From assembly GCA_017934955.1 (NCBI GenBank), contig JAGBIO010000024.1, positions 14,550 to 78,549 of the forward strand: a DNA stretch of 64,000 nucleotides, given 5' to 3'. The notes under the pieces were generated by a model, which was not told where the DNA came from, searched no databases, and saw nothing but the letters and a program-made list of their open reading frames with translations. Shown in pieces: positions 8,222 through 63,235 of the stretch (within the stretch, counting starts at the first letter, position 1; each line of letters opens with the position of its first letter). Source of the DNA: Clostridia bacterium (GTDB taxonomy: Bacteria > Bacillota > Clostridia > TANB77 > RGIG9151). The position numbers and the translations under genes were made by a program.

Positions 8222-8252
8222 CCATCGTAGGGGACGGCGTCCTCGACGTCCC
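8222..8252. repeat. REP-like hairpin, family C (GTAGGGGACGGCGTCCTCGACGTCCC)
   Basis: A GTAG leader plus a GC-rich palindrome (GGGACG...CGTCCC). It is followed by a T-run. Confidence 0.8.
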
Positions 8253-8295
8253 GTTTTCTCTATTTTGAATTATATCTTATTTATACTTTTGTTGT

Positions 8296-8450
8296 ATAGT
8301 TATTATTCAGACTATATCTCCTATAATACCGATACACCCATTGTAGGGACAGCATTCATGCTGTCCTGCTTTTTGCCTTTTCTGTGGACAGCATAAATGC
8401 TGTCCCTACACTATTTATGCTATTTCTATAAATTTAAGTCTGAATAGTAC
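8296..8450. mobile_element. MITE-like element: REPIN (inverted REP doublet) flanked by ~12-bp terminal inverted repeats TATTCAGACT...AGTCTGAATA
   Basis: Core TGTAGGGACAGCATTCATGCTGTCC...GGACAGCATAAATGCTGTCCCTACA with outer inverted repeats TATTCAGACTATA / TTAAGTCTGAATAGTA. The same architecture recurs at 12300-12460, 17330-17460, 17490-17630, 32935-33060 and 46130-46250. Confidence 0.7.
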
Positions 8451-8500
8451 CGTTATATAGGCAAAATCTTCAACTTTTCCTATATAAGAAAAAAAGGGCT

Positions 8501-12299: not shown

Positions 12300-12460
12300 T
12301 AAAGAGATAGTTACTGATCAGACTTAACAACTTATTATTTTCGCTAAAGCCTTGTAGGGACAGCATTCATGCTGTCCTGCATTCCGCATTTTCTGTGGAC
12401 AGCATAAATGCTGTCCCTACACTATTTATGCTATTTCTATAAATTTAAGTCTGAATAGTA
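12300..12460. mobile_element. MITE-like REPIN element (family A) with AGTCTGA-type outer inverted repeats
   Basis: TGATCAGACTTAACAA...TTGTAGGGACAGCATTCATGCTGTCC...GGACAGCATAAATGCTGTCCCTACA...TTTAAGTCTGAATAGTA. Confidence 0.7.
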
Positions 12461-12469
12461 ACAAGAGAG

Positions 12470-12610
12470 AACAAAAGTGTTTTGCGCAGGCAAAACACCT
12501 GCGCCGAACGCGAGTTGCGTAGCAACATTCCTTTCGCGTGAGTGTGCTTCCCTGCGGAGCGTTTTTTGTTGTATAGGCAAAATCTTTGATTTTTCCTATA
12601 CAACAAAAAA
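12470..12610. repeat. ~140-bp composite structured repeat (family E), copy 1 of 3
   Basis: AAAAGTGTTTTGCGCAGGCAAAAC...GCGAGTTGCGTAGCAAC...TGTATAGGCAAAATCTTTGATTTTTCCTATACA with several internal hairpins. Near-identical copies lie at 40985-41125 (opposite orientation) and 46113-46128 plus 46255-46400. Confidence 0.75.
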
Positions 12611-13861: not shown

Positions 13862-13893
13862 ACTGTAGGGGACGACGTCCTCGACGTCCCGCT
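13862..13893. repeat. REP-like hairpin, family C
   Basis: cTGTAGGGGACGACGTCCTCGACGTCCCGCTTT. Confidence 0.8.
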
Positions 13894-13971
13894 TTTTCTA
13901 CCGCCATTATATTCCATCTATTTCCAATTTTCAATCAAAATCATTCGACAAATTTCGCACATTGAAAAAGT

Positions 13972-14190
13972 AGCTGTAAAAAAACTGCCTCAGGAAAATA
14001 AAATTTTCAAAACAATGACGGAGAACCGGCAAGTACAAACGGATAAGGAATGGGTAAACTCAACACGAGGTTGAGTTTAGCTTACCCCTGCCATGGACGG
14101 CAGATGTAAGCGGCCCATTCCGTTTCATTTTGTACTCCGGTTTGTAGTCCCTGTTTTGAAAATTTTATTTTCCTGAGGCAGTTTTTTACA
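13972..14190. repeat. ~210-bp element bounded by 35-40-bp perfect terminal inverted repeats with a highly structured interior (candidate MITE or structured ncRNA)
   Basis: Left arm CTGTAAAAAAACTGCCTCAGGAAAATAAAATTTTCAAAACA (13972-14012) and right arm TGTTTTGAAAATTTTATTTTCCTGAGGCAGTTTTTTACA (14148-14190) are perfect reverse complements. The interior has nested helices CCGGCAAGTACAAA/TTTGTACTCCGG and AAGGAATGGG/CCCATTCC and hairpins GGTAAACTCAACACGAGGTTGAGTTTAGC and CTGCCATGGACGGCAG. Confidence 0.5.
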
Positions 14191-17170: not shown

Positions 17171-17329
17171 TTTATTCTTCTTCCACTATATAGTTTAAAA
17201 ACAGAGAAAACAAGATTTAAATATCTTATTTTCTCTGTTTTTCTTCCATATTCTCGCTATTATAAAACTTAGGACTAAAGTACCGATTGTCAAGTTAACG
17301 AAAGAAGATTGTTTCTCACTCTGCTAAAC

Positions 17330-32904: not shown

Positions 32905-32934
32905 AAGAAACGTTACTGTTCAAACTTAAAATTA

Positions 32935-33060
32935 TAAAAATGGCACAAACACTGTAGGGACAGCATTCATGCTGTCCTGCATTCCGCATTTTCTGCGGAC
33001 AGCATGAATGCTGTCCCTACAAGGCTTTAGTGCAAATAATAAGTTGTTAAGTCTAACCAG
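32935..33060. mobile_element. MITE-like REPIN element (family A)
   Basis: CTGTAGGGACAGCATTCATGCTGTCC...GCGGACAGCATGAATGCTGTCCCTACAAGG...TTAAGTCTAACCAGTAAC. Confidence 0.7.
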
Positions 33061-33065
33061 TAACA

Positions 33066-35861: not shown

Positions 35862-35929
35862 AATCTCATCTCCCTCCTTGTTACAATTTAGATTATAAAT
35901 TATAAAAATGGCACAATCTCTGTACGGAC

Positions 35930-36100
35930 ACAATTCATTGTGTCCTAATTCTAATGTCTACCTATTTTCCGGCCATAAAAATGGCACAAACACTGTAGGG
36001 ACACAATTCATTGTGTCCTAATTCTAATGCCTACCTATTTGGGCATAATAATGACACAATCATTGTAGGGACAGCATTTATGCTGTCCTTTCTATCTATT
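35930..36100. repeat. Three tandem REP-like hairpins (two family B, one family A) in direct orientation
   Basis: CTGTACGGACACAATTCATTGTGTCC, CTGTAGGGACACAATTCATTGTGTCC and ATTGTAGGGACAGCATTTATGCTGTCC, each followed by a similar ~35-bp tail (TAATTCTAATG.CTACCTATTT..GGCCATAA). Confidence 0.8.
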
Positions 36101-38043: not shown

Positions 38044-38164
38044 TCTATCCATCCTTTCCAATCATATTCCAATACATTATTTTATCACAAAAGCCAACAC
38101 ATTTCCACACTTCTACATAAAATTTTAACAATAAGTGTTACAGGTCAAAATTAAAATCGCCACA

Positions 38165-38402
38165 AATATATTGTAGGGTCACAATTCATGCTATCCTGCC
38201 TTTCTGTCTTTTCTGTGGACAGCATAAATGCTGTCCCTACACCATTTGTGCCATTTTCTACATTTGAAAAATACAGGCGTACGGACAGCATTCATGCTGT
38301 CCTATTTTCCAACATTCGCTCATTTCCCGGACACAATGAATTGTGTCCCTACGGCGATTGTGCCATTATTGTAGGGGACGGCGTCCTCGACGTCCCGATA
38401 TA
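38165..38402. repeat. Cluster of five REP-like hairpins mixing stem families A, B, C and a hybrid
   Basis: ATTGTAGGGTCACAATTCATGCTATCC (a decayed A/B hybrid), GGACAGCATAAATGCTGTCCCTACA, CGTACGGACAGCATTCATGCTGTCC, CGGACACAATGAATTGTGTCCCTACGG and TTGTAGGGGACGGCGTCCTCGACGTCCCG. Confidence 0.8.
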
Positions 38403-40952: not shown

Positions 40953-41125
40953 ATGTAGGGGCGAGCACTGCTCGCCCGTTTTTCGGTGTATAGGCAAAAT
41001 CTTTGATTTTGCCTATACACCGAAAAACGCTCCGCGAGGATGCACACTCGTGCGCAAGGAAAGTTGCTACGCAACTCGCACTCGGCGCAGGTGCTTTGCC
41101 TACGCAAAGCACTTTTGTTCCACAA
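40953..41125. repeat. Family-D REP hairpin fused to copy 2 of the ~140-bp composite repeat (family E, inverted relative to copy 1)
   Basis: ATGTAGGGGCGAGCACTGCTCGCCC is followed by TTTTTCGGTGTATAGGCAAAATCTTTGATTTTGCCTATACACCGAAAAA...GTTGCTACGCAACTCGC...GCCTACGCAAAGCACTTTTGTTCC, the reverse complement of the 12470-12610 element at ~85-90% identity. Confidence 0.75.
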
Positions 41126-41149: not shown

Positions 41150-42814
41150 ATGCCATACGACGGACTTGTCACAAGAAAAATCAAAGAAGAATTAGAAGAA
41201 AAATTAATATACGCAAAAGTAGATAAAATCATACAACCCACAAAAGACGAACTGATTCTCTCTTTTCGCGCACAAAAAGAAACCTTACGACTTCTTTTGT
41301 CCGCGAATGCTGAAACTGCCAGAACGCATTTAACAAAATATTCTTTATATAAAAATCCGGCAAAACCATTTAACTTCTGCATGATTCTACGCAAATACCT
41401 CTCCGGAGCAAAACTCTTACATATTTCTCAACCGAATAACGACAGAATCTTAGCCTTCTCTTTCGAAAACAGCAACGAATTGGGAGACAAAGAAAATCGA
41501 ACGCTTCTCATCGAAATGATGGGGAAATACAGTAACATTATTCTACTAAACGCCTCCGATACCATCATCGACTCCTTAAAACACGTTGACTTCGAAATCA
41601 GTCGCGTTCGCGAAGTCATGCCGGGAAGAAAATACACTCTCCCGCTAAACGCAGAAAAGAAAGACCCTTTTGCCGTTACGAATCAAGAATATACTTCTCT
41701 CTTGGCAAAACACCAAGAAAACTTTTTAGCAACCGCATTTATCGGAATTTGTACTCCTGCCGCGAAATACTTTACCGAAAGCACCGATTCCTCTTATTCC
41801 GCTTTTTCTCAATTTATTCATCAAAAAACACAAGCCATGGTATTCACCAAAAACGGACAACCGCATGACTTTTATTTTTGTGCTTGCCCTGTTTTAGGGA
41901 TTTCTGCTCAACCGACGACTACCCTATCGGAAGCCATCGATGAAGTGTATCGTCACAAGATTACGCAAAAACAATTGCTTTCTGCGAAAAACAGCCTCTC
42001 AGAAAATGTTTCACACTTGATTGCCAAGACAAAAAAGAAATTAGATATTATTGATTCTAAGTTAGAAACAACAAAAGACATGGAAGAGTTAAAAATAAAA
42101 GGCGAATTGCTCTCCGCCAATCTATATCAAATTAAACCTTATACTGCGGAAGTAAAAGTATGCGATTACTATCATGCAAACTCCGAATTAAATATTGCCT
42201 TAGACCCCAATTTATCGCCTTCCCAAAATGTTCAAAAAATATTTAAAAAGTACAACAAATTAAAAAATACCGTTACCGCTTGTTCGGCGCAAAAAGAAGA
42301 GTTAACCTCCGATCTTGCTTATTACGAATCCTTACTTTTTGAAATACAAAATCAAGAGTATATAGAAGACTTAGAGGAAATCAAAGAGGAATTATTAGCA
42401 CAAAAATTAATTCACTCTCAAAAAACCGAAAAGAAAACCACACAAAAAAACTACCTCACCTACACCTACGAAAATTTCGAAATTCTTGTCGGTAAAAATA
42501 ACCTGCAAAATGACCAATTAACCTTTAAAATTGCGCACAAAAACGACCTCTGGTTCCACGTCAAAAACGCCCCCGGATCCCACACCATACTACGTACAAA
42601 CGCTCAAGATGTTTCACGTGAAACGTTAGAATTCGCAGCCTCTCTCGCAGCCTCTCACTCCAAATTAAAAAACTCACCGAAAGTAGAAGTAGACTATACT
42701 GAAATAAAAAACGTCAAAAAAATTCCGGGTGCAAAACCCGGAATGGTAATATATGTAAATTATAAAACGATTTATATTGCACCTAATGACCACTCATCTT
42801 CTTTCCAAGGATAA
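41150..42814 (+). CDS. rqcH: RqcH (NFACT family; formerly fibronectin-binding protein A-like), ribosome-associated quality control
   Basis: 554 aa with an NFACT-N domain (MPYDGLVTRKIKEEL...KIIQPTKDELILSFR), a central coiled coil, and a C-terminal NFACT-R/DUF814 domain (DLWFHVKNAPGSHTILR). Confidence 0.8.
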   Translation: MPYDGLVTRKIKEELEEKLIYAKVDKIIQPTKDELILSFRAQKETLRLLLSANAETARTHLTKYSLYKNPAKPFNFCMILRKYLSGAKLLHISQPNNDRILAFSFENSNELGDKENRTLLIEMMGKYSNIILLNASDTIIDSLKHVDFEISRVREVMPGRKYTLPLNAEKKDPFAVTNQEYTSLLAKHQENFLATAFIGICTPAAKYFTESTDSSYSAFSQFIHQKTQAMVFTKNGQPHDFYFCACPVLGISAQPTTTLSEAIDEVYRHKITQKQLLSAKNSLSENVSHLIAKTKKKLDIIDSKLETTKDMEELKIKGELLSANLYQIKPYTAEVKVCDYYHANSELNIALDPNLSPSQNVQKIFKKYNKLKNTVTACSAQKEELTSDLAYYESLLFEIQNQEYIEDLEEIKEELLAQKLIHSQKTEKKTTQKNYLTYTYENFEILVGKNNLQNDQLTFKIAHKNDLWFHVKNAPGSHTILRTNAQDVSRETLEFAASLAASHSKLKNSPKVEVDYTEIKNVKKIPGAKPGMVIYVNYKTIYIAPNDHSSSFQG

Positions 42815-45800
42815 ACAAAGCTAATAATCCAAGTGCTCCGACACCTGCAATGGTACCTCCCACTACGCCGCCTGAATGACTTCCGCCACCGGAATTGCCG
42901 GAACCGCCGGAGCTGCCTCCACTCGAGCCACCGGAACCACCTCCGCTCGAACCGCCGCCATTCACCGGCGTATAGGTAATCTTGTTAAATACACTCATGT
43001 GCGCATCTACATGTCTGGTCTGCACAAAATCTTCAACCTCTTCTCCGTTACTATCAATATAACGACCTTTCAGAGTTGCAACAACAATTGCCGAACCCGG
43101 TTGGTTTGCAGTCGCCTTGACCTTTATATCATAATAAATAAACCCTTCTTCATCTGTCTTCTCTTGAAGCCCTACCACTTCTGCAGAAGAAATCGCATTA
43201 ACGATATTTCCTGCCTCATCCTTTGAAGTATCGTTAATTGCTATATTGATATCTTCTTTTTTCACAGTAAATTTTCCTAATTTAGCTTGGTCCAAATTTT
43301 TAAAATCTAAAATCTCCTCCTCGGAAGAATTTCCATACAGATAACTTGTTCTTGCACGTATGGTATATTCTTTCGTCTCTCCGGGATTAAATCCAAAATC
43401 TGTCGGATATAAAATATTCACTTGGAATCTTGCCCGTTCATCTCCGCCTTTTATAATTCGAATTTTAGCATAATCGATTTGCCCGTTTATATTTTCAACT
43501 TTAATAGTAACATCATCTGAAAAATACTTTGACGATTTCTTTCCACTCTCTGTCAAACCGATTTCTAATTTCTCGTTTTCTAAATTCTTAAGATAAAAGA
43601 AATGACTGCTATCTCCGGAGCCGCTGTTATTGGAAAAATAGTCATAATTTGGATATAAAGACTGACTGGTTGCTGTAATCTTTTTAATCTCACTGTTACA
43701 AATAATATCCATCTCCGTCTCAATCGGGCGATATTCGTAATATTGGCTTCCTTCCGGACCAACAAGTACTTTATCGATATAAAACTCAGTTTGATAAACA
43801 TTTATCCGAAGTTCATAATCCAAATTTAAATTTCCGGTCTTTCGATTATAATGACAAATTGAACAAACATCATTTACAAAAGTATGCGGCTTTTCACCAT
43901 ACTTATCACCACATACCGGACACTCATACCAGTGCGTATCCGGTCCGCTTACTAAATTCTGCATCCGACCCGGATGTTGGCACCCTTCCGGTTGAGTAAC
44001 ATCACATCCTGCAAGCGAACACTTTCCATTTACAAAAGTATGACTTTCCAAAATACTTTGACCGCAAAGATCACAAGTTTTTCTGTGTTGTGTAAGTGTA
44101 CTCATTACTTTGCGCCACACATGACTACACGTTCCATCTTGTGTGTATCCGCAAACCAAACATTTGCTTCTCGTAGAATCAAAGCTATGATTTGCTCGAT
44201 CTACCTCTCCGCAAACGGAGCATTCCCGATAATGCTGCGTTGAGCCCCATTTCCAAGGACCTACACTGTGATTTTGGTAAACCGTACCGCAAACAGTACA
44301 CTTTCCTCCGTTTTGATGTGTGCCTCCGGTATGATTCTTACACACAAATTGATGACCACATTTGTCGCATTTATCATCTTTATCTTTATCCTCATGGTTT
44401 TCCGTATATGTCTTTGAACAACCGGAAGCAATACAATTAGCAGAGTGCGTCGAATCATCTACTTTTGTCCAATTATTCGCCGGACCATGTTCTTCATAGG
44501 CATACTTACATTTTGTACATATTCCTCCGTTACTATGCGTCGCACCGGTATGGGAACCTTCGTTAAAATGTAAATCACAACCGGAACAGGTTTGCCAATG
44601 CTTTGTATCATCCCAGTCCCACTCAGAAGAAGCCGTATGATCTTGGTATTGCTCGCCGCAAAGTGTACAAGTTCCTTTGTTTTCATGCGTTCCGCCACTG
44701 TGTTCACCTTCTCTGCAATTTACTTTTACATAAATTGTCTTTGAACCTTTCCCCTGTAAAGTAACGATAATTTTTGCTTTCTCTAAAGAAGGCATTAAAC
44801 CGGTAATAAAACCATCCACCACCTTTAACGAGGTGCCTTCTGCCGTCCAACTCAGTACACTGTAATCCATTTTATAATCACTTGCATTAATCGCTATACC
44901 GCCATTTCGAAAAGTAGGCGTTAACGCAACACTTTCTCCCACTCGAATCGTTTCTGGTCCGATTAATCCGCTTAAAGTAATATCTTCTCCTACATAAACC
45001 GCACATTCCGCTTTTACTCCGTTAATTGCCGTCGCGGTAATAATCGTTGTTCCTAACGTTTCAAGAACCGTAACATTCCCGTTTTCATCCACCGTTGCAA
45101 CAGAAGGATTGCTCGAAGTCCATGTAAAAGTTTGTGTAACCGTATCCTGCGGTTTCTTATTCTTTATTGTTAAAGTAAATGATTTATTAAAATCGGAAGT
45201 CGTATAGGTAGACTGACTTAATTCAAAGGATTTTACCTGCTTATCGTCATACGGCACTCCTTCTGTTCGACAAATCTCACAGGTATTCCCCTGATCCGGT
45301 GTATGCGCTGTTTTTCCTAACGGATACATACAAGTCGTACAATATTGCCAGTGATACGAATTATCCGATTTAAAATCCGTACTTGATTCATGTAGCGCTC
45401 CTCCAAATTCCATTTGACATACGACACATTTATACCAGTGACGATAATCATTCACCTGAATCGCACCTTTTACGTGCTCTTGATAAGATTTATAGGTACA
45501 TCCTGCAAAACTGCAATTGCTCCAATGATATTCTTCATTATACCCTTGTTCCGTTGTACTATTCTCATGTGTCTGATAGTTTGCCTGACACACCTCACAA
45601 GTACCTTTGTTTTCATGCGTTCCACCGGTATGATACGCCGATTTTATCGCAAAACAATTCGGATCGGAACAATACTGCCAATGCTTTCCCTTCAACTCCG
45701 GTTGATTCTTAAAAAATTTTTCACACTTTTCACAACTGCACCCGAATTTATGATACGGTTGATTGGTAAAATAGTGCCTCGTACGAAAAACCTTCGCACA

Positions 45801-45986
45801 AACTATGTTTGTTGTATTATACTTATTACATTTATAGTAATGATAATTTTCGTCACTGCCCGCAAAAACATTTGATGTTATATGTCCTTCATTCAACTCT
45901 GCAGTAGTATGTAAAGTAAAATCCGCTGCATTTGAAAAATGAATTAAAAAACAGAACGAAATAAGTAACAACCAAAATTTCTTCAT
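42783..45986 (-). CDS. Large cell-surface protein with two blocks of tandem Cys/His-rich (HWxxCxxC...H / HTGGTHxNGGxCTxC) repeats, a Big_2 Ig-like domain, a Gly/Ser linker and a C-terminal TM anchor
   Basis: 1067 aa with a signal peptide. It has at least 15 repeats of the type [HY]W..C..C-x(8-14)-H(T/S/E) plus four near-identical H(T/S)GGTHxN(K/G)G(T/K/I)C(T/E)(V/L)C units. There is a Big_2-like segment (TWTSSNPSVATVDENGNVTVLETLGTTIITATA), a GGGSSGGGSGGSSGGSSGGSGNSGGGS linker and a terminal hydrophobic helix ending in KKMSGH. Confidence 0.6.
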   Translation of the reverse strand: MKKFWLLLISFCFLIHFSNAADFTLHTTAELNEGHITSNVFAGSDENYHYYKCNKYNTTNIVCAKVFRTRHYFTNQPYHKFGCSCEKCEKFFKNQPELKGKHWQYCSDPNCFAIKSAYHTGGTHENKGTCEVCQANYQTHENSTTEQGYNEEYHWSNCSFAGCTYKSYQEHVKGAIQVNDYRHWYKCVVCQMEFGGALHESSTDFKSDNSYHWQYCTTCMYPLGKTAHTPDQGNTCEICRTEGVPYDDKQVKSFELSQSTYTTSDFNKSFTLTIKNKKPQDTVTQTFTWTSSNPSVATVDENGNVTVLETLGTTIITATAINGVKAECAVYVGEDITLSGLIGPETIRVGESVALTPTFRNGGIAINASDYKMDYSVLSWTAEGTSLKVVDGFITGLMPSLEKAKIIVTLQGKGSKTIYVKVNCREGEHSGGTHENKGTCTLCGEQYQDHTASSEWDWDDTKHWQTCSGCDLHFNEGSHTGATHSNGGICTKCKYAYEEHGPANNWTKVDDSTHSANCIASGCSKTYTENHEDKDKDDKCDKCGHQFVCKNHTGGTHQNGGKCTVCGTVYQNHSVGPWKWGSTQHYRECSVCGEVDRANHSFDSTRSKCLVCGYTQDGTCSHVWRKVMSTLTQHRKTCDLCGQSILESHTFVNGKCSLAGCDVTQPEGCQHPGRMQNLVSGPDTHWYECPVCGDKYGEKPHTFVNDVCSICHYNRKTGNLNLDYELRINVYQTEFYIDKVLVGPEGSQYYEYRPIETEMDIICNSEIKKITATSQSLYPNYDYFSNNSGSGDSSHFFYLKNLENEKLEIGLTESGKKSSKYFSDDVTIKVENINGQIDYAKIRIIKGGDERARFQVNILYPTDFGFNPGETKEYTIRARTSYLYGNSSEEEILDFKNLDQAKLGKFTVKKEDINIAINDTSKDEAGNIVNAISSAEVVGLQEKTDEEGFIYYDIKVKATANQPGSAIVVATLKGRYIDSNGEEVEDFVQTRHVDAHMSVFNKITYTPVNGGGSSGGGSGGSSGGSSGGSGNSGGGSHSGGVVGGTIAGVGALGLLALFILGKKMSGH

Positions 45987-46112
45987 CTAACCACCTCATC
46001 TTTTATGTTATCGGCAAAAAATATTTCAAAATAATAGCTTTTTCTTCTTGCGACTCAATCGTATACAGATATAATTATTTTACCACTTTTTTATGTAAAT
46101 TTAAATACATTT

Positions 46113-46400
46113 TAAAGAAAAGTGTTTTGCGTAGGTTACAGGTCAGACTCAACCTTTATATGTACCTTAAATGTTTCTCAATCTATTGTAGGGACAGCAT
46201 TTATGCTGTCCTGCTTTTCCGCCTTTTCTGCGGACAGCATGGCACTCAAAGCTTCCCAAGAACGTAGTGATTGGCTGGTTTCGACTGCGCCGCGAGTTGC
46301 GTAGCAACATTCCTTTCGCGTGAGTGTGCTTCCCCGCAGAGCGTTTTTAGTTGTATAGGAAAATCAAAGATTTTGCCTATATAACTAAAAACACTGTCAA
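46113..46400. repeat. Copy 3 of the ~140-bp composite repeat (family E), interrupted by a degenerate MITE-like family-A REPIN
   Basis: AAAAGTGTTTTGCG at 46113-46126 and TGCGCCGCGAGTTGCGTAGCAACATTCC...TGTATAGGAAAATCAAAGATTTTGCCTATATAAC at 46290-46400 match the ends of copy 1. Between them lies TAGGTTACAGGTCAGACTCAACC...ATTGTAGGGACAGCATTTATGCTGTCC...GCGGACAGCATG|GCACTC, a MITE left end plus a truncated second hairpin. Confidence 0.7.
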
Positions 46401-46428
46401 AACTTTTGTTCCAACAGTGTTCTTCCTC

Positions 46429-47796
46429 TTACTTCCTCGAAAAGAAAAATCCACGTTTCTTCGGCTTCTCTTCCTGTCCTCGTGTCGTCACCATATCCGC
46501 AAAAGAAACCAGCGTCAAATCCTCTCTCTCTAAAGCAATTCTCTTCAATTCCTCCGTAAAACCGGTTCGGGAAAATAAATAATAATATCGATCAATCAAA
46601 TCCACATGTTCTGCTTTTTTCACCAACTTTTCAAACTCTTCTCTTCCCACCGGTTCATTTTTCCAGAAGCAATCGCCGACAATTGCTTCCAAACCGTTTC
46701 CTGCTACGATATCAATCAGATAATCTTTATCCCACCAAACATTGTTTTCCTTGATTTCCGTCTTTATTGTTCCCTCTTCCTTTTGCTTTTGAATATACTC
46801 ACGACAAAAACCGGGAAATTTTAATTGTAAATAACGATACAACTCACCGTATACCTTTGTATCATATACCCATTCCCCTTTATCCAAAACAATTTCCGTC
46901 ATATTCTCCGGCACAAAACAATACCAAAAATCTATTACCGGATTGGTAATCGCATACCGACTTTTTCTCGTATCCTTCCCAAACGTCGGTTTTATTTTTC
47001 TTAAAATATTTAATGATAATAACACTGTAGTATATTTATTACAAACGCCCGTAGGCAAAGCAACCTTCTCTGCAATCTCGTTTAATGTTGTATATCCCTT
47101 TGCAATCGCCTCTAAAATCAAATTATATACTTGTACTTCTCTAAGCTCATTTTTCAGAATTCTCTTCGGTTCCTCTAACAACTTTCCTTCCGCCGAGAAA
47201 AAATTTTCAATTAAATTTTGCTTCAAATCCTTTGAAAAATCCAGTCCGTCAATATACTTATCTCGCGTACCGAAAATCGCATAATACTTAAATTTATCTT
47301 CCGAAGGTAATGTTTTTTCATTCCATATAGAATAAAATCCAACAGATTTCGAAGAATGCCAAATATACTTTTCCAACTTACTTTCCGCTATTTTGCTTTC
47401 ATAAGAAGCACTCGAAGAAATACAAATCATAAGATTATTCGTATTCTTCAAGGCTTTTATAAGCTTCTCCAACTCTGTAAAATCATCCGCCTCAAATAAA
47501 AACTCGGAATGATAAAAAATCCAAACAATCTTTTCTGAAACCGCCTGTTTTTCTATATATTCTAAAACCGTCTCGATGGTAACTTCCTGCACATCCTCTT
47601 TCTTATTTTCAAAAAACAGCACTAATTCCTTATACAATCTTATCCAATTATTCTTTTTTCCAAACTCTGTCGCCGAAAAGAAAAAAGCTCTTTTATTCGC
47701 AATAAAAGTTTTCACTTTAGCAATTAAATTTTCCCCTGCCTCTTCCTTACAAAAAAGAAAAGAAAAAGCATCTGCATCATACTCTTTCTGAAACAT
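46429..47796 (-). CDS. DUF234-type (archaeal-ATPase-like) protein with a degenerate or absent Walker A
   Basis: 455 aa. The C-terminal region (NEIAEKVALPTGVCNKYTTVLLSLNILRKIKPTFGKDTRKSRYAITNPVIDFWYCFV) matches the DUF234 wHTH and FW motif. The N-terminal half is the right size for the AAA domain but lacks the GxxxxGKT P-loop. Confidence 0.5.
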   Translation of the reverse strand: MFQKEYDADAFSFLFCKEEAGENLIAKVKTFIANKRAFFFSATEFGKKNNWIRLYKELVLFFENKKEDVQEVTIETVLEYIEKQAVSEKIVWIFYHSEFLFEADDFTELEKLIKALKNTNNLMICISSSASYESKIAESKLEKYIWHSSKSVGFYSIWNEKTLPSEDKFKYYAIFGTRDKYIDGLDFSKDLKQNLIENFFSAEGKLLEEPKRILKNELREVQVYNLILEAIAKGYTTLNEIAEKVALPTGVCNKYTTVLLSLNILRKIKPTFGKDTRKSRYAITNPVIDFWYCFVPENMTEIVLDKGEWVYDTKVYGELYRYLQLKFPGFCREYIQKQKEEGTIKTEIKENNVWWDKDYLIDIVAGNGLEAIVGDCFWKNEPVGREEFEKLVKKAEHVDLIDRYYYLFSRTGFTEELKRIALEREDLTLVSFADMVTTRGQEEKPKKRGFFFSRK

Positions 47797-50339: not shown

Positions 50340-50476
50340 CAGAATGTGGTTTGTAGGGACACAATTTATTGTGTCCTAATTCTAAGCATCTGCCTATTTC
50401 CGGACACAATAAATTGTGTCCCTACAGTGTTTGTGCCGTCATTGTAGGGGACGGTGTCCTCGACGTCCCGATATAT
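50340..50476. repeat. Family-B REPIN (inverted doublet) plus a family-C REP hairpin
   Basis: TTGTAGGGACACAATTTATTGTGTCC (50351-50376) and CGGACACAATAAATTGTGTCCCTACAG (50401-50427) are in inverted orientation, followed by ATTGTAGGGGACGGTGTCCTCGACGTCCCG (50441-50470). Confidence 0.8.
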
Positions 50477-50597
50477 TTGCAACAATTTTAGACTGCCTAA
50501 TATCACTTATTCCACGAAATCACAAATTAGTATGGCTTTTTTTCAAAAAATAATGTATACTATAGATATCTATATTGTGAAAGGGCGTTGATAAAAA

Positions 50598-50965: not shown

Positions 50966-50993
50966 AAACTCGCCCCTACACCATAATATGTAA

Positions 50994-51128
50994 AAAGGTC
51001 ATAAAAGGTTCTAACTATCAGGCCATAAAAGGTTCTAACTATCAGGCCATAAAAGGTTCTAACTATCAGGCCATAAAAGGTTCTAACTATCAGGCCATAA
51101 AAGGTTCTAACTATCAGGCCATAAAAGT
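50994..51128. repeat. Perfect 24-bp tandem repeat, 5 full copies plus partial units (unit CCATAAAAGGTTCTAACTATCAGG)
   Basis: Five identical 24-mers start at 51006, 51030, 51054, 51078 and 51102, with partial units at both ends. The array is immediately followed by the hydrogenase operon terminator hairpin. Confidence 0.9.
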
Positions 51129-51153
51129 GCGGACCTTTTTCAAGGTCCGCACT
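51119..51153 (-). terminator. Rho-independent terminator of the hydCBA operon
   Basis: On the minus strand, AGTGCGGACCTTGAAAAAGGTCCGCACT is followed by TTTTAT, 8 nt after the hydA stop. Confidence 0.55.
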
Positions 51154-56032: not shown

Positions 56033-56383
56033 ATGAATTACTACTCGCACTATCAATCCAACCCGATTTTTCCCTATAAAAAAACACTACATAGACCAAA
56101 CTCTGCTTCATCTGCGCCTTCTAAAGAGATAACACCTCAGGTAGCGACACCTCCTCCGCATCATTCACAAGAAAAAAACAATAGACAGGACAAGAAAAAT
56201 GCTTTTTTTGACAAAACACTTCGTTCCCTATCTACTGTATTGGAACCGATTGAAAAAATCTTAGGCAGAAAGATTGAATTTGACGACATTCTTCTCGTCG
56301 TTCTAATTTACATTATTTTTACCGAAAAAGAAGGAGAAAATAATACGTTACTTTGCTGCCTAATCTTCGTATTACTCGGCTGA
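56033..56383 (+). CDS. Hypothetical protein (116 aa) with a C-terminal hydrophobic segment
   Basis: RBS AGGAGGTCTCGTA then ATG. It has an N-terminal Pro/Ser-rich region and a C-terminal LLVVLIYIIFTEKEGENNTLLCCLIFVLLG. Confidence 0.45.
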   Translation: MNYYSHYQSNPIFPYKKTLHRPNSASSAPSKEITPQVATPPPHHSQEKNNRQDKKNAFFDKTLRSLSTVLEPIEKILGRKIEFDDILLVVLIYIIFTEKEGENNTLLCCLIFVLLG

Positions 56384-56402
56384 AATATTGATGTATCCTG
56401 CC

Positions 56403-57461
56403 TTACACTTCCTTCTCTATATAGAAACTTTTTACCTCTTTCCCGATCAATTCATCCGTACAGGTAATCAACACCTGACAGTTTTTTAGCTTTTCATATA
56501 AAAATTCTCTTCTTTCTCGATCTAACTCTGACATGACATCATCCAATAATAAAACCGGCATTTCTCCCTTTTCTTGAAAAACCAAATCTTTTTCTGCCAA
56601 TTTTAATGCCAACACAGCCGTCCGAATCTGCCCCTGCGAACCAAAGTTTCCTAACGGCATCTCATTAATGCTCATCAAATAGTCATCCCGATGAATCCCC
56701 ACCGATGTAAAACCACGAAAAATATCCTTTTCCCTTTTCGATTTTATTAACGCCAAACATTCCTCTTCGCGATCCGGAATCTGCGTCTTATAGACAAGCT
56801 GTACATCCTCTTTCTTTTCCGACATTTGTAAATGATAATCTTGAAACAGCGGAGAAATTTTTTGAATATTCTCCTCACGAATTTTTTTAATTCTTATATT
56901 CGCCATCGCCAACTTCTCATCCCAAATATCCGCTTCTAAAGACGGAAGGTGTTCCCTTTTTGTTTTTAATAAATTATTTTTCTGTTCCAAAATTTTATAA
57001 TATTCCTGTAAAACGTAGATGTATCCCGGGTTTAACTGACTAATTAAAAGATCAAAATTCTTTCTTCTCTCCCCCGGATCCCCTTTCACAAAATTCAAAG
57101 TTTCCGGAGAAAACAAAACAATCAATATATTTCCAAACAAAGCACTTAGCTTCTGTTGCTTAATATCGTTAATTTTTACTTGTTTCTTTCCATTCTCGGA
57201 AAGAACGATATTCACTCGTTTTTTGCGATCTTTCAGCGAAGCTTCTACCGTAACCGAAGCAAACTCCTGCCCCTTTTTTACTAATTCCGAGTCTTTTCTG
57301 GTACGAAAAGAACGGCCTATTGCAGATAAATAGACCGCTTCTAATATATTTGTCTTTCCTTGTGCATTATTTCCCCAGAAAACATTCGTTTTAGGAGACA
57401 ATTCCATTCTTTTTTCCGAATAACTTCTGTAATTTTTTAATTCAATTGTATCAATAATCAC
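56403..57461 (-). CDS. recF: DNA replication and repair protein RecF
   Basis: 352 aa with Walker A GNNAQGKTN (MIIDTIELKNYRSY...) and a C-terminal ABC-type signature/Walker B region. It is positioned after dnaN. Confidence 0.9.
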   Translation of the reverse strand: MIIDTIELKNYRSYSEKRMELSPKTNVFWGNNAQGKTNILEAVYLSAIGRSFRTRKDSELVKKGQEFASVTVEASLKDRKKRVNIVLSENGKKQVKINDIKQQKLSALFGNILIVLFSPETLNFVKGDPGERRKNFDLLISQLNPGYIYVLQEYYKILEQKNNLLKTKREHLPSLEADIWDEKLAMANIRIKKIREENIQKISPLFQDYHLQMSEKKEDVQLVYKTQIPDREEECLALIKSKREKDIFRGFTSVGIHRDDYLMSINEMPLGNFGSQGQIRTAVLALKLAEKDLVFQEKGEMPVLLLDDVMSELDRERREFLYEKLKNCQVLITCTDELIGKEVKSFYIEKEV

Positions 57462-57514
57462 AAAAAGATACCTCCATCAAATTCGCGATACATCAACGTT
57501 TGCAGTAAAAGGTA

Positions 57515-58615
57515 CTAAATTCTTACCGGCAAAATCATATAAGTATATTCTTCCCCTTCCAACGGACGCATAATACAAGGAGAAATGGAAGAACCGAAAT
57601 CCAAGCTAATCGTTTTATCATCAATTGCCTTTACCGCTTCAATTAAATACTTCGGATTAAAGCCGATTTCCAAATTCTTTCCGATGCTTTCTACTACAAC
57701 TTCCTCTCGAACATCTCCTGATTGAACCGCACATTGAATTACCATTAAAGAATCCGCAATGGTAATTTTAATCGGGAATTGCTTATCATCTCGTGACATA
57801 ACAGCCGCTCTTTCCAAAGAACTTAACAATACATTACGATCTACCGTTACACGTAATTCCTTCTCCTTCGGAATCGCTTGTCTGTAATCCAAAAATTCAC
57901 CTTCCAAGACACGTGTTACTGCCTTACAATTTGACATTTCAAACAAACCTTGATTCTTTTCCACACCGATCGTAATAGGCTCATCCGAATCTTGTAGAAT
58001 CTTGGAAATCTCCGTTAAGGTTCTTCCCGGAATAATTGCCTTAAAATCAGCTGTACTTTCTTCTTCCAAGTGTTTGGTTTGTAATGCAAGACGAAATCCG
58101 TCCAACGCAACCATATTTAAAACATTTCCGTTTTTCTCAATTAAACACCCAGTAAAAACCGGTCTGGTTTCATCAATTCCAACCGCAAAAATCGTTTTAC
58201 GAATCATATCTTTTAAAATATTTTGACTGATTTTTAACGATTGTTCCGCATTAATTTCCGGTAAAACAGGAAAATCTCCGCTATCTACCGTAACCACCTT
58301 AAATAATGAACCTTCACACTCTATAATCAGTAAATTTTGCTCATTCGTTGAAATCTCAATACTGCTATCCGGCAATTTTCGAATAATCTCAGAAAACATC
58401 TTGGCATCCACTGTAGCTTCTCCTACTTCACTGATTTCCGCATCTAAATAATACTCAATTCCCAAATCCAAATCCGTTGCGGTTATAATCACCATACTTT
58501 CTTTTGCTTCTAAATGAAAGCACTCCAACATCGGCATAGTAGTTTTTCCTGCTACTGCCTTTTGTGCTGCATTAATACCAACCAATAGTTTCTCTTTTTC
58601 CACTGAAAACTTCAT
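57515..58615 (-). CDS. dnaN: DNA polymerase III beta sliding clamp
   Basis: 366 aa with the three-domain clamp fold (MKFSVEKEKLLVGINAAQKAV...). It lies immediately downstream of dnaA. Confidence 0.9.
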   Translation of the reverse strand: MKFSVEKEKLLVGINAAQKAVAGKTTMPMLECFHLEAKESMVIITATDLDLGIEYYLDAEISEVGEATVDAKMFSEIIRKLPDSSIEISTNEQNLLIIECEGSLFKVVTVDSGDFPVLPEINAEQSLKISQNILKDMIRKTIFAVGIDETRPVFTGCLIEKNGNVLNMVALDGFRLALQTKHLEEESTADFKAIIPGRTLTEISKILQDSDEPITIGVEKNQGLFEMSNCKAVTRVLEGEFLDYRQAIPKEKELRVTVDRNVLLSSLERAAVMSRDDKQFPIKITIADSLMVIQCAVQSGDVREEVVVESIGKNLEIGFNPKYLIEAVKAIDDKTISLDFGSSISPCIMRPLEGEEYTYMILPVRI

Positions 58616-58682
58616 AATATACCTCCTGTTTTATATAAATTCTTTTATTAGAACTATTATTGATAGGCTGCATTAAATATTT

Positions 58683-58752
58683 TTGTAGGGTCAGCATTCA
58701 TGCTGTCCTGCTTTCTGCCTATTCTGTGGACAGCATAAATGCTGTCCCTACA
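58683..58752. repeat. Family-A REPIN inside the dnaA-dnaN intergenic (oriC) region
   Basis: TTGTAGGGTCAGCATTCATGCTGTCC...TGTGGACAGCATAAATGCTGTCCCTACACC. Confidence 0.8.
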
Positions 58753-58789
58753 CCAATATTTGATTTTTAGGTTTACTCTTTTGTTCTAA

Positions 58790-59100
58790 ATTGAAAAAAT
58801 CTTCTTTTTTTATTTTAAATAAATATTATTAAGTATTAATAGTATTAGTAATGTGAATTATGTGGATAACTGCAATTTTCCAACCTATCAGCAAAATTTG
58901 AACGTGGAAAAAATGAGAATAACTTTTCAAAATTTATCCACAAAGAATTTTAACATTGTGAAAAACTTTTTATTAACAAGTTTTCAACTCCCCATTCACA
59001 CCCAAATGTGGATAACCTGAAAATCAAATTATTCGCAGTTTACAGATTGCAGGAACCGCATAAAATCACGTTTTTTGCTATTGTGGAAACTGTGGATAAA
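58790..59100. other. oriC (dnaA-dnaN intergenic part): AT-rich DNA-unwinding element plus at least 4 DnaA boxes
   Basis: An AT-rich ~60-bp tract at 58795-58855 (TTTTTTTATTTTAAATAAATATTATTAAGTATTAATAGTATTAGTAATG). DnaA boxes TGTGGATAA at 58862, TTATCCACA at 58935, TGTGGATAA at 59007, TGTGGAAAC and TGTGGATAA at 59082-59099. Confidence 0.8.
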
Positions 59101-59107
59101 AATCCTC

Positions 59108-60442
59108 TTAATACAATAAGTTCTTTTTTATTTCATCAATGGTATTTTTTAATTCTTTTTTCTCGTTAATATCCTTTGAAATCTTATTGCAAGCGTGGAT
59201 TACCGTTGTATGATCTCTTTTGCCGAATTCAAATCCGATTTTCGGTAAAGATAAGTTTGCCACTTCTCGGCAAAGATACATGGCAATTTGTCTTGGATAG
59301 GCAATATCCGCGTTTCTCTTTACTCCTTTTAAATCTTCCACTTTGATATTAAAGTATTTTGCAACGACATCTTGAATCAAATCAATCGTAATGTTCTTAG
59401 TTTTTATATTTGTAATATCTTTTAATGCTTGCATCGCAATCTCTAACGTAACCGGTTCATTATTTAAATGTGCCAACGCTAAAATTTTATTTAACGCACC
59501 TTCCAATTCACGAATATTGGTATCGATTCTCTCTGCGATAAATGCGTTAATTTCATCCGGCACTTCAATACGATCCAACTGTGCTTTCTTTCTTAAAATT
59601 GCAATTCGAGTTTCGTAATCCGGCGTTTGAACGTCAGCTGTTAAGCCCCATTCAAAACGAGAACGTAAACGATCTTCCAACGGTTCAATATCCTTTGGCG
59701 GACGATCGCTGGAGATAATAATCTGTTTATTGGCTTCATAAAGAGCATTAAAGGTGTGGAAAAATTCTTCCTGTGTTCCCTCTTTTCCTGCAATAAATTG
59801 AATATCATCCACCAATAGTACATCTACATTACGATACCGATTTCGAAACGCGTTATTTCCTTCCGTCGCTTGTTCCTTAATGGCGTTGATAAAATCATTC
59901 GTAAATTTTTCAGATGTGATATAAAGAATCTTTTGACTTGGGTTTTGTTGTAAAATGTAGTGTCCGATTGCGTGCATCAAATGGGTTTTGCCAAGTCCCA
60001 CACCGCCATATAAGAACAGCGGGTTGTACGCTTTTGCAGGTGCTTCCGCTACCGCTAAAGAAGCTGCATGTGCAAAGCGGTTGTTATTACCTACCACAAA
60101 ATTTTCAAATATGTAACGCGGGTTTAATCCGGTAGAACTTTGGTCGGCCGGTTTCACACCCGGCATTTTTGTTTCAACTTCTTTTTTTGCTTCATCCGGA
60201 ATGAGATATTTTATTTCATAATCCTGATTGGTAACAAATTTAACGGTATTTTTCAATAAGTCATGAAATCTTGACTGAATGTTTGTCCTATGAAAATCAG
60301 ACGGAACTTGAATAAAAAATGAATTATTTTCCACATAAAGCGGTTTCAAATCCGCAATCCAAGTATTAAAGCTGATTGCCGTTACTTCTCCTTTTAAACA
60401 GTCTAATATTTTTTCCCAATCGGATTGTAAAATTTGTGACAT
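59108..60442 (-). CDS. dnaA: Chromosomal replication initiator protein DnaA
   Basis: 444 aa with AAA+ Walker A GGVGLGKTHL and a C-terminal DnaA-box-binding HTH. It is flanked by DnaA-box clusters. Confidence 0.95.
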   Translation of the reverse strand: MSQILQSDWEKILDCLKGEVTAISFNTWIADLKPLYVENNSFFIQVPSDFHRTNIQSRFHDLLKNTVKFVTNQDYEIKYLIPDEAKKEVETKMPGVKPADQSSTGLNPRYIFENFVVGNNNRFAHAASLAVAEAPAKAYNPLFLYGGVGLGKTHLMHAIGHYILQQNPSQKILYITSEKFTNDFINAIKEQATEGNNAFRNRYRNVDVLLVDDIQFIAGKEGTQEEFFHTFNALYEANKQIIISSDRPPKDIEPLEDRLRSRFEWGLTADVQTPDYETRIAILRKKAQLDRIEVPDEINAFIAERIDTNIRELEGALNKILALAHLNNEPVTLEIAMQALKDITNIKTKNITIDLIQDVVAKYFNIKVEDLKGVKRNADIAYPRQIAMYLCREVANLSLPKIGFEFGKRDHTTVIHACNKISKDINEKKELKNTIDEIKKNLLY

Positions 60443-60544
60443 TTTAATCCCCTTCCAAAAAAAAGTTTAAATATTAAAAATTTTTACAATAAAAAAACTT
60501 CAAAGCCTTATTATGAATAAATTGCATCGATATTGGAAAAACTA

Positions 60545-60750
60545 TTAAGTTATCCACAATTTTATCCACAAGTGTTGATAACGCATAAACAAAAGCTTTG
60601 AAATTTTATCTTTCGTGAAATATAGTATTAGACGTTGTTAATTAAATGTTGATAAAATCAATTAAATACTAAGCAAATACAATATATCAGAAAATTTACG
60701 GGTTTTCAATATAAATGTGGATAAAAATTTAAATATCCACAGAACTTTTG
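60545..60750. promoter_or_regulatory. oriC / dnaA promoter region: upstream DnaA-box cluster
   Basis: TTATCCACA at 60553 and 60566, TGTTGATAA at 60579, TGTGGATAA at 60716 and ATATCCACA at 60737. Confidence 0.8.
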
Positions 60751-60892
60751 TTCGAACACTATTGACGACTAAACAATTATGATATAAAATCCGATATAGC
60801 GGAAGCCGAATAATATTTGAATAATAATTATGATGTAAAAAATTATGTTATATAAGATTATTATTACTATTTTGGACTTTGTCGAAGGTTAA

Positions 60893-60922
60893 TTGTAGGG
60901 GGCGGCGTCCTCGACGCCCCGA
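60893..60922. repeat. REP-like hairpin, family C variant (GTAGGGGGCGGCGTCCTCGACGCCCC)
   Basis: Compared with GGGACG...CGTCCC elsewhere, the outer stem carries compensatory changes (GGGGCG...CGCCCC). Confidence 0.8.
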
Positions 60923-60979
60923 AATTGAGCCATAATCTAATTCGTAAATAAATACAAATACAGAAAGGAAACAAAGAAG

Positions 60980-63235
60980 ATGATTGATTTTGAGAATTTA
61001 AACGCACCACAAAAGGAAGCAGTACAAACAACAGAAGGTCCTCTTCTTGTAATTGCCGGAGCAGGTTCCGGAAAAACAAGAGTTCTTACCTATCGAATTG
61101 CTTATTTGATTTCGGAAAAGCAAGTAAAGCCTTATAACATTTTAGCGATTACCTTTACCAATAAAGCAGCAAAAGAAATGAAAGAACGTGTTACTTCCCT
61201 ACTTGGAAAAACGGCGGAAGAAACATGGATCAGCACCTTCCACTCTTTGTGTGTAAAAATTCTACGCTATGATATCGATAAAATTCAATATGACAAGAAT
61301 TTTGTCATTTTAGATGCCGCTGACCAAAAAACATTGATAAAAGAATGTCAAAAAGAATTAAACATTGATGATAAAAATTATCCGCAAGGATATTTGTTAA
61401 GCGAAATCAGTCGTGCCAAAAACAATTTGTTATCGCCGGAGGAATACACAAAACGTTATCAGGCCGATTTTCGTCTCTCTAAGGTAGCATTAGTATATGA
61501 GTTATATCAAAAGAAGCTAAAAAACGAAAATGCGCTTGATTTTGATGATTTAATTATGCAAACGATTCGCCTGTTTATGGAAAACCCTGAGGTACTTTCT
61601 TTTTATCAGAATAAATTTCGGTATATTTTAATTGATGAGTATCAGGATACCAATCCGGCACAGTTTACTTTAGTAAGTATGTTAGCGGCCGGTTTCGGCA
61701 ATATTTGTGCGGTTGGTGATGATGACCAGAGTATTTATGCGTTCCGCGGTGCGGATATGAGAAATATTTTGGAATTCGAACAAACCTTTCCGGGAGCCAA
61801 AGTCATTAAACTAGAGCAAAATTACCGTTCTACGGCAAATATTTTAAATGCTGCGAACGAGGTAATTAAGAATAATGTCGGAAGAAAATCCAAAAAGTTG
61901 TGGACAGAAAACGGTTCCGGATCGAAAATTCAGTTTAATCGTGCGGAAAACGAAAGAGAAGAAGCAAGATATATTATCGATCAGATTAAATATTTGCATG
62001 AAAAAGAACAGCGTGATTATCGCTCGTTTGGTGTACTTTATCGAATTAATGCGCAATCTCGAATCATTGAAGATTATTTAATGAGTGAAGCACTACCGTA
62101 CAAAGTAGTCGGCGGAATGAAATTCTATGATAGAAAGGAAATTAAAGATATTATCGCTTATTTGCGTTTTATTTATAATCCTGCTGATTTTGTCAGCTTA
62201 AAACGTATTATCAATGAGCCAAAAAGAGGAATCGGAAAGACGTCGATGGACAATATTCAGAAATATATGAATCAAAATGAGGTAAACTGTTGGTATGTGT
62301 TAGATCATATTCAGGATATCCCTGACATTTCCCGTTCGGTGGCAGCCATTCGAGAATTTACGGAATCGATAAAAGAGTTTTCGTTACTGGCAAACGACGG
62401 AGAACATTTGGTATCGGAACTAATCAAAACAATCCTCGAAAAGACAGGATACATCAATGTTCTAAGGAATGAAGAGTCGATAGAGAATCAGACAAGAATT
62501 GAAAATATCATGGAATTTATTGCGGTAGCGGAAGAATATGAAAGAGAAGCGGAAACACCAAACTTATCGGATTTCTTAGAGAATATTGCCTTGGTAACCG
62601 ATATGGATGAAAACAGCGAAGATAGTGATTATATCACGCTTATGACTATTCATAGTGCAAAAGGTTTAGAGTTTCCGGTTGTCTTTATTCCCGGAATGGA
62701 AGAGGGGGTTTTCCCGGGATATCGTTCTATCGGAAGTGATGAGGATATTGAAGAAGAACGACGTCTTTGTTATGTGGGAATCACAAGAGCACGAGAGAAG
62801 CTGTACATCAGCTGTTCGCGAATGAGAACGTTATTTGGAAACACCTCTTGCAATGCACCTTCTCGATTTATTGAAGAAATACCGGAAGAGTTAATGGAAG
62901 GGTATCAAAAGTATGAGAAATTAAGTTCGGACTTTGAAGAAGCAAACCATTATGCGTTAAATCATATTGGATATATGCCGCAAAAGTCGCAAGTGACTCG
63001 TCCTGTTGCTGCGTCAAATTATTTAGATCGTATCGGAGGACATAAAATTTCTGCAACGCAGGTAAATAACGATTTATCGGTATTTGAGAAAGGAAAATTT
63101 GTTATGCATAAACGTTTCGGAGCGGGTGTTATTACGAATATTACGCCGGAAAACGATGACCTAATGTTGGAAATTATGTTTGAAAATGCCGGAATGAAAC
63201 GCTTAATGGCGAAATACGCCCAATTGGAAGTGTAG
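60980..63235 (+). CDS. pcrA: ATP-dependent DNA helicase PcrA (UvrD/Rep superfamily 1)
   Basis: 751 aa with Walker A AGAGSGKTRVLT and helicase motifs through to the C-terminal Tudor-like tail. The N-terminus is MIDFENLNAPQKEAV. Confidence 0.9.
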   Translation: MIDFENLNAPQKEAVQTTEGPLLVIAGAGSGKTRVLTYRIAYLISEKQVKPYNILAITFTNKAAKEMKERVTSLLGKTAEETWISTFHSLCVKILRYDIDKIQYDKNFVILDAADQKTLIKECQKELNIDDKNYPQGYLLSEISRAKNNLLSPEEYTKRYQADFRLSKVALVYELYQKKLKNENALDFDDLIMQTIRLFMENPEVLSFYQNKFRYILIDEYQDTNPAQFTLVSMLAAGFGNICAVGDDDQSIYAFRGADMRNILEFEQTFPGAKVIKLEQNYRSTANILNAANEVIKNNVGRKSKKLWTENGSGSKIQFNRAENEREEARYIIDQIKYLHEKEQRDYRSFGVLYRINAQSRIIEDYLMSEALPYKVVGGMKFYDRKEIKDIIAYLRFIYNPADFVSLKRIINEPKRGIGKTSMDNIQKYMNQNEVNCWYVLDHIQDIPDISRSVAAIREFTESIKEFSLLANDGEHLVSELIKTILEKTGYINVLRNEESIENQTRIENIMEFIAVAEEYEREAETPNLSDFLENIALVTDMDENSEDSDYITLMTIHSAKGLEFPVVFIPGMEEGVFPGYRSIGSDEDIEEERRLCYVGITRAREKLYISCSRMRTLFGNTSCNAPSRFIEEIPEELMEGYQKYEKLSSDFEEANHYALNHIGYMPQKSQVTRPVAASNYLDRIGGHKISATQVNNDLSVFEKGKFVMHKRFGAGVITNITPENDDLMLEIMFENAGMKRLMAKYAQLEV

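Follow-up and report, generated by a model that had tools for sequence, protein, structure and literature searches.

A MITE within a family-E repeat

In the 64-kb stretch of DNA analysed here, from this point on the window, a copy of a small repeat designated family E holds a member of a MITE family between its two parts, and comparison with the other copies of both repeats supports a nested insertion. The split copy, E3, is the third of its family and spans 46118-46391, comprising the first 18 nt of the repeat, a gap of 149 nt and the last 107 nt (Table 1). An interrupted repeat of this kind shows which of two insertions came first and marks the invader as mobile in the lineage. A first-pass annotation of this DNA had recognised both parts of the copy, putting the second at ~110 nt; the stub, which it gave as 14 nt, and the gap, which it gave as ~130 bp, are both longer. 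It also had E resume directly where the MITE breaks off, overlooking a 43-nt stretch, designated X, that intervenes.

Table 1. Coordinates of family-E and MITE copies in the window, with the features that border the split copy
Feature	Position	Strand	Basis
E1, intact family-E copy	12470-12610	+	E profile (model 1-141), 165 bits
E2, intact family-E copy	40979-41119	-	E profile (model 1-141), 167 bits
E3, E 5' stub AAAAGTGTTTTGCGTAGG	46118-46135	+	E consensus match; E profile positions 2-22
E3, left 63% of a MITE, starting GTTACAGGTCAGACT	46135-46241	+	nhmmer, model 1-97 of 153, 77.4 bits, E=1e-25
E3, 43-nt filler X GCACTCAAAGCTTCCCAAGAACGTAGTGATTGGCTGGTTTCGA	46242-46284	+	no match in the sequences searched, the same site apart
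E3, E 3' part (model 30-141)	46285-46391	+	E profile, 101.1 bits
Terminator-like hairpin and T-run of the DUF234 gene (46429-47796, -)	46392-46428	-	read from sequence
Promoter-like site TTTACA/TTTAAA-17-TAAAAT of the 1067-aa gene (42783-45986, -)	46071-46105	-	promoter scan
Full MITE in an H4-like palindrome	8299-8451	+	profile
Full MITE, 7 nt before E1; flanks AAGAGATA / AAGAGAGA (7/8)	12310-12462	+	profile
Tandem MITE pair	17325-17463 (without right terminal repeat), 17480-17631	+	profile
Full MITE; flanks AAAGAAAC / AAAGGGGC (5/8)	32912-33064	+	profile
MITE without right terminal repeat (model 1-138)	38137-38266	+	profile

Family E, a structured repeat next to terminators

The family-E unit is 141 nt long and forms four hairpins (H1-H4). 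Both of the intact ~140-bp copies proposed in the first-pass annotation are real, the first with exact coordinates and the second displaced by a few nucleotides (40985-41125 in place of 40979-41119). E1 and E2 are 85% identical. H1, GTGYTTTGC-GYAG-GCAAARCAC, is complete in both and differs between them by a compensatory change of a T-A pair to a C-G pair; across the four hairpins and three copies, five pairs are altered on both sides, as compared with none in all of the slid controls. H4, a 23-bp palindrome with a T-run on one side and an A-run on the other, resembles a bidirectional terminator and forms the terminator-proximal end of all three copies.

Every copy (3/3) lies directly after a terminator hairpin and T-run, in constant orientation relative to the upstream gene. 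E1 adjoins the rpsR terminator (12639-12608, -) and abuts its T-run, E2 is flanked by the spoIIR terminator, which is of REP type, and by the ribosome-binding site of rqcH, and the E and MITE composite at E3 starts directly past the T-run of the DUF234 terminator. On its other side, the promoter-like site of the 1067-aa gene begins 13 nt past the E 5' end. A consensus scan of E returned no promoter able to drive downstream genes, and the sole ORF over the E3 region is a mechanical 60-aa frame. The protein encoded by the adjoining gene (42783-45986, -) is secreted; it contains many Cys/His-rich repeats (H-x-GGTH-x-N-x-G-x-C-x-x-C) and, at its C terminus, a Gly/Ser-rich anchor region. No Pfam match is on record for it, and the 1046-aa orthologue in a relative has weak Ig-like matches only.

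Family E has no Rfam match at gathering thresholds, and in E-value mode its matches are far below threshold, the strongest being miRNA-precursor models placed on the long palindrome. (The only Rfam match in the window is a TwoAYGGAY RNA at 14016-14150, +, with 50.6 bits against a gathering score of 43.) An E core pattern, GAGTTGCGTAGCAACNTTCC, has one match among GTDB genomes, in a cyanobacterial MAG with unrelated flanks, and three in JGI metagenomes that have one unrelated flank in common; we regard all of these as chance. A near-identical pattern, GTTGCGTAGCAACNTTCCTT, has no match in IMG/VR. The GTDB, JGI and IMG/VR scans thus added no further copies of E, and blastn with the whole E3 site found nothing in plasmids or phages. 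Family E may be an undescribed small structured insertion element that favours the 3' side of terminators, as three copies and two empty sites (see below) would indicate.

The interruption falls in the loop of H1

The E 5' stub consists of the 5' arm of H1 and its GTAG loop, the final G being common to the end of the MITE. A degenerate form of the E 5' consensus, AAAAGTGYTTTGCGYAGG, occurs with zero mismatches at three places in the window, all of them E copies and one of them the stub at 46118-46135, and does not occur in shuffled sequences. On the far side of the insert, E restarts exactly at the 3' foot of H1 (CTGCGCCG, then CGAGTTGCGTAGCAAC ... CTAAAAA) and continues through H2/H3 to H4 (the 23-bp palindrome, 46344-46391), with 90% identity to E1 and 85% to E2. 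What E3 lacks is GCAAAACAC, 9 nt that are exactly the 3' arm of H1, along with another 3-4 nt.

As the first-pass annotation proposed, the insert opens with the left end of a MITE. The boundary has to be moved, since the 'TAGG' included there belongs to E (consensus GCGYAGG) and the MITE starts with (G)TTAC at 46135/46136. The left terminal inverted repeat (GTTACAGGTCAGACTCAA, 46135-46152) is followed by REP1 (GTAG and hairpin, 46188-46211), a spacer and the 5' arm of REP2 (GGACAGCATG, 46232-46241), where homology ends in the REP2 loop. One complete REP hairpin and a break in the second had likewise been described, correctly. The blastn matches of this 107-nt MITE part to every other copy end at 46240/46241. 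The exact string TAGGTTACAGGTCAGACTCAACC has a single occurrence in the window, even at a tolerance of 3 mismatches; the portion common to other copies is GTTACnGnTCAGACT.

Nesting was tested as in Croucher et al. 2011 (PMC3049150), by rescoring a profile after excision of the insert; the E profile was built from E1 and E2. At the intact E3 site, this profile matches in two pieces of 5.8 and 101.1 bits. Excising 46136-46284 yields a single match of 115.6 bits, and excising only the MITE-homologous part yields 108.8 bits. E1 and E2 are continuous across the junction position, and E3 is interrupted in the loop of H1. Because H1 is complete in E1 and E2, where it also carries the compensatory change, and because of the rescoring result, we infer that the copy of E was there first and that the MITE inserted into the GTAG loop of its H1. 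Had E instead inserted into a MITE, the order would be MITE-E-MITE, an arrangement that is not seen.

One could also suppose that the insert is ancestral, E3 being a longer E variant and E1 and E2 deletion derivatives, as the first-pass annotation itself had anticipated. The sample of three E copies, with no others in the collections scanned, leaves this idea some room. Nevertheless, a separate family, present at several sites where E is absent, accounts for 107 of the 149 nt; H1 is complete in E1 and E2, and its compensatory change lies just where E3 is broken; and E3 is without the 9-nt arm. On these grounds an ancestral insert is extremely improbable. No allele with an intact E and without the MITE was found for the E3 site, the databases holding one strain of this organism, and the relatives described below have neither element; 'direct evidence' of mobility, the wording of the first-pass annotation, is therefore too strong.

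The MITE family and its REP core

The MITE profile was made from four full copies in the window and a fifth that lies ~4 kb to the right of it, in the locus L014. The profile has seven matches that cover most of the model in the window (E3 and six other places) and one in L014, and their flanks differ. Full copies are 153-154 bp long and have no coding capacity. Their ends are 18-bp terminal inverted repeats, GTTACTGnTCAGACTTAA ... TTAAGTCTGAnTAGTAAC (12310-12462, 8299-8451, 32912-33064 and L014), of which the E3 copy has the left one only. The core, in all full copies, is a pair of inverted REP hairpins ~20 nt apart, GTAG-GGACAGCAT-nnn-ATGCTGTCC, and the unit reaches ~45 nt beyond each REP, out to the terminal inverted repeats. 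Full MITEs are flanked by in-register 8-bp direct repeats that agree at 7/8, 7/8 and 5/8 positions; the flanks of the L014 copy agree at 6/6 in register, or at 8/8 if the right flank is read 2 nt inside the terminal repeat. The E3 copy has lost its right junction, which leaves that insertion without a readable target duplication.

In the tandem pair (17325-17631) the MITE recurs with a period of 157 nt. By coordinate arithmetic, ENA scaffold_409 ends at this pair, near 17.5 kb, which indicates that the tandem repeat breaks assemblies. The genome could be followed leftward past the window in short Logan contigs only. To the right, L014 has at 16437-16695 a MITE that sits in the left terminal repeat of a second MITE-like element, whose arms are similar but whose REP core is different (GGGACGTCGAGGACGCCGTCCC). 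It seems that arms and REP cores are modules that can be combined. An apparent second junction of E stub and MITE in L014 proved to be merely a blast extension into unrelated flank.

REP-like hairpins headed by GTAGG(G) occur throughout the window, with at least four sequence families and about 40 hairpins in 64 kb (for instance 8225-8262, 13863-13900, 35918-36020, 40955-40977, 50354-50479 and 60893-60930). The last of these lies in the intergenic region of a putative origin: recF, dnaN and dnaA, all on the - strand, and then pcrA occupy 56331-63235 and L014, rpmH-rnpA-yidC-jag-trmE-gidA follow just past the window end, and the probable place of the chromosomal origin of replication is around 60.5-61 kb. 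A repeat of another type, with about 6-7 tandem units of 24 nt (AGGCCATAAAAGGTTCTAACTATC), is present at 50972-51151. The alignment of the window to ENA assemblies has an offset at 51055-51068, which suggests a copy-number difference or a collapsed repeat.

A second MITE in an E-type palindrome

A cleaner, independent nested insertion of the same MITE family is found at 8299-8459. Here the MITE (region 8291-8494) sits within a solitary palindrome that resembles H4 of family E, and both junctions are intact. The flanking duplication, GTTGTATA / GTTATATA at 8291-8298 and 8452-8459, agrees at 7/8 positions; the wider flanks are TTTTGTTGTATA to the left and GTTATATAGGCAAAATC... to the right. If the MITE is taken out together with one duplicate, a 48-nt palindrome is restored that is identical to H4 of E1 at 43/48 positions, and the E-profile score for the region rises from 15.2 to 21.4 bits.

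Of the four E-type modules in the window, three (E3, this palindrome and E1) contain or adjoin a MITE. An estimate of ~0.003 for the chance occurrence of such an association, from ~9.3 kb of intergenic DNA and seven insertions, is rough and post hoc. Either the two elements share the places where insertions are tolerated or the MITE prefers hairpin DNA, two possibilities that these data do not distinguish. A target preference for hairpins is suggested by no more than three to four cases.

The likely mode of MITE movement

Classical MITEs moved by a DDE-type transposase are recognised by terminal inverted repeats together with ~8-bp duplications. In the IS200/IS605-type view, a REP doublet moves in single-stranded form, has no terminal inverted repeats and leaves no target duplications. 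The terminal inverted repeats and flanking ~8-bp duplications of the MITE make a DDE-type transposase, acting in trans and generating target duplications of ~8 bp, the most likely agent of its movement. This reading predicts an insertion sequence with ends matching GTTACnGnTCAGACTTAA and with 8-bp duplications. Insertion 3' of GTAG, as at an IS200/IS605-type target, was considered and set aside, because the left flanks elsewhere end in TATA, GATA, AAAC and GTCA.

The 'REPIN-type' mobility of the first-pass annotation fits the core of the MITE only. As in a REPIN, REP1 and REP2 are two inverted REPs within 130 bp, and GTAG stands 5' of the palindrome foot (GTAGGGACAGCAT...). The doublet itself is not the mobile unit, that of the MITE being larger, and the 18-bp terminal inverted repeats and 8-bp flanking repeats differ from what REPIN/RAYT transposition produces. 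Among the called genes of the 64-kb window there is neither a DDE nor a Y1 transposase gene, nor any PF01797 member that would be a RAYT, and tblastn with a RayT probe gave no match; the portion of the genome covered amounts to the window plus about 10 kb.

Empty sites in relatives

The E3 site was compared with the contigs of three relatives whose DUF234 proteins are 84%, 78% and 73% identical and whose gene order is the same. In each of them (3/3) the T-run of the DUF234 terminator is followed within about 15-35 nt by the promoter block, and both E and the MITE are absent. The block itself, tttaaattKacataaaaaagtgRta, is conserved in all three (L005, L006 and L008). To illustrate, L005 has a homologous DUF234 hairpin and T-run with the promoter directly after it (2190-2260), and in the window about 280 nt of E and MITE lie exactly between the DUF234 T-run and the promoter block. 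The E2 site is likewise empty in L008 (6380-6500), where the spoIIR T-run is joined directly to the rqcH ribosome-binding site.

Neither E nor the MITE occurs anywhere in the 19 kb of the relatives' fragments. Hairpins headed by GTAG or GTACG number 40 in the window (0.6 per kb), as against 0-1 in those 19 kb. From their absence at the relatives' sites and in the fragments, we take both families to be recent, lineage-specific arrivals. The lineage is an uncultured one of the Clostridia that has recently gained GTAG-REP hairpins, a REP-doublet MITE and a terminator-associated repeat, its relatives at 73-84% protein identity being without all three in the fragments available. The genome, a rarely sampled Clostridia MAG, carries spoIIR, spo0A and dnaA-dnaN-recF.

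History of the E3 site

We consider it likely that E3 arose in three steps, E landing after a terminator, the MITE entering E and a rearrangement following, so that two unrelated small non-coding elements became stacked. In the first step, a family-E copy would have landed directly past the T-run of the DUF234 terminator. In the second, a 153-bp MITE would have integrated in the GTAG loop of H1, between ...TTGCGTAG and GCAAAACAC. In the third, 43 unmatched nt would have taken the place of the final 56 nt of the MITE, of the TTGCGTAG duplicate to be expected there and of the 9-nt H1 arm. The first-pass annotation had the insertion 'followed by partial deletion', an event that cannot create 43 unmatched nt. 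The break points are the loop of H1, the loop of REP2 (a hairpin tip) and the foot of H1, and the position of all three at hairpin features suggests hairpin processing or template switching in the third step rather than a plain deletion.

These same break points could be taken to mean that no transposition occurred and that an E copy and a neighbouring MITE-plus-E arrangement gave rise to the site through ectopic recombination or a template switch at hairpins; one such arrangement is 12310-12610, where a MITE stands 7 nt upstream of E1 in the same relative orientation. We think this quite improbable. A junction of E 5' end and MITE left end is not derivable by simple exchange between the arrangements observed, the MITE of E3 is of a different subfamily from the one adjacent to E1 (its nearest relative is the L014 copy), and the same family has inserted cleanly, leaving a target duplication, at 8299-8459.

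X has no match in the window, in the loci compared from other organisms, in plasmids, in phages or in viral contigs, and is found only in L001 and L002, at the same site. A search for a relic of the target duplicate and hairpin arm within X gave borderline alignments that vary with the reference copy, and a CGTAG pentamer in X (46262-46266) is not significant. Another account has the MITE nearly complete, with X as its heavily mutated right half and a deletion of ~38 nt that removed the right terminal repeat, the duplicate and the H1 arm. The similarity of X to MITE right arms is weak and depends on the reference, with 0.45%, 2.3% or 18% of shuffles scoring equally; it exceeds the shuffles for two of three reference copies (0.45% and 2.3%), and the 18% belongs to the closest copy, that of L014. 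In favour of the same account, AAAGCT-TCCC in X resembles AATGCTGTCCC given a 6-nt insertion offset, and two other copies are also without the right terminal repeat (model ends 138 and 139). Against it, the profile alignment halts at 46241 and does not reach into X, and decay would have been uneven, the left 107 nt being 75-82% identical to other copies and X about 55%. On balance, a mutated right half is unlikely, and we retain replacement by unmatched sequence as the third step.

An assembly artefact, in the form of a chimeric join via REP and E repeats, deserves mention in a region so dense in repeats, where ENA scaffold_409 ends near 17.5 kb and a Logan contig breaks inside the E core at 46308. 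The stop at 46308 is expected, since the assembly graph branches at a repeat. Moreover, L001 and L002, which are ENA assemblies of two different samples, carry an identical 601-nt stretch that includes the E3 site; they come from one project (record prefix XIEF21-1) and are thus not fully independent. X is unique, whereas chimeric joins normally fall in shared repeat and not at a hairpin tip and unique sequence, and the flanking genes and their order agree with the relatives. An artefact is accordingly very improbable.

The composite of E and MITE, placed between a terminator and a retained promoter, is probably neutral, and E3, with its H1 destroyed, is probably dead.

Comparison with known systems

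A broader reading joins the two families in one lineage-specific repeat ecosystem, with E as a mobile element that targets terminator T-runs in fixed orientation and the MITE as a hybrid of REPIN-like and terminal-repeat element, served by a transposase that prefers hairpins. We offer it tentatively and consider it more doubtful than the history of E3 given above; within it, the four hairpins of E may have been kept by compensatory changes.

Repeats that insert into one another are known from the pneumococcal BOX, RUP and SPRITE elements, where they were detected by HMM rescoring after excision (Croucher et al. 2011, PMC3049150). The present case is alike in having a repeat inside a repeat, revealed by the same rescoring test. 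It differs in coming from an uncultured Clostridia MAG, in the unrelated sequences of its two families, both undescribed, and in the truncation of the insertion with filler.

REPINs are defined by two inverted REPs within 130 bp, with GTAG 5' of the palindrome foot (Bertels & Rainey 2011, PMC3116915; RAREFAN, 10.1101/2022.05.22.493013; Ton-Hoang et al., PMC3333891), and in the REPIN/RAYT system the gene for RAYT, a Y1 transposase, is usually flanked by REPs. The MITE core agrees with this in being an inverted REP doublet, ~20 nt apart and headed by GTAG(G), and departs from it in that the doublet is embedded in ~45-nt arms with 18-bp terminal inverted repeats and ~8-bp direct repeats. The REP/RAYT papers compared name Proteobacteria and do not mention Firmicutes or Clostridia. 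With classical MITEs such as Correia elements and Nezha (PMC3049150), the family has in common a length of ~150 bp, the lack of coding capacity, terminal inverted repeats, strong folding, several intergenic copies and, around copies other than that in E3, flanking repeats of target-duplication type; what sets it apart is an interior made of a REP doublet. This hints that elements having terminal inverted repeats and target duplications can serve as carriers of REP doublets.

Lastly, insertion sequences such as IS1397 target REP or palindromic units, according to Tobes & Pareja 2006 (PMC1525189). The likeness is that of a mobile element inside the hairpin of another repeat, here the H1 loop of E, an H4-type arm and a MITE terminal repeat, and the difference is that the invader is a MITE and not a full insertion sequence. 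The type of event, repeats inside repeats, is thus already known, and both of the repeat families that take part in it here are new.
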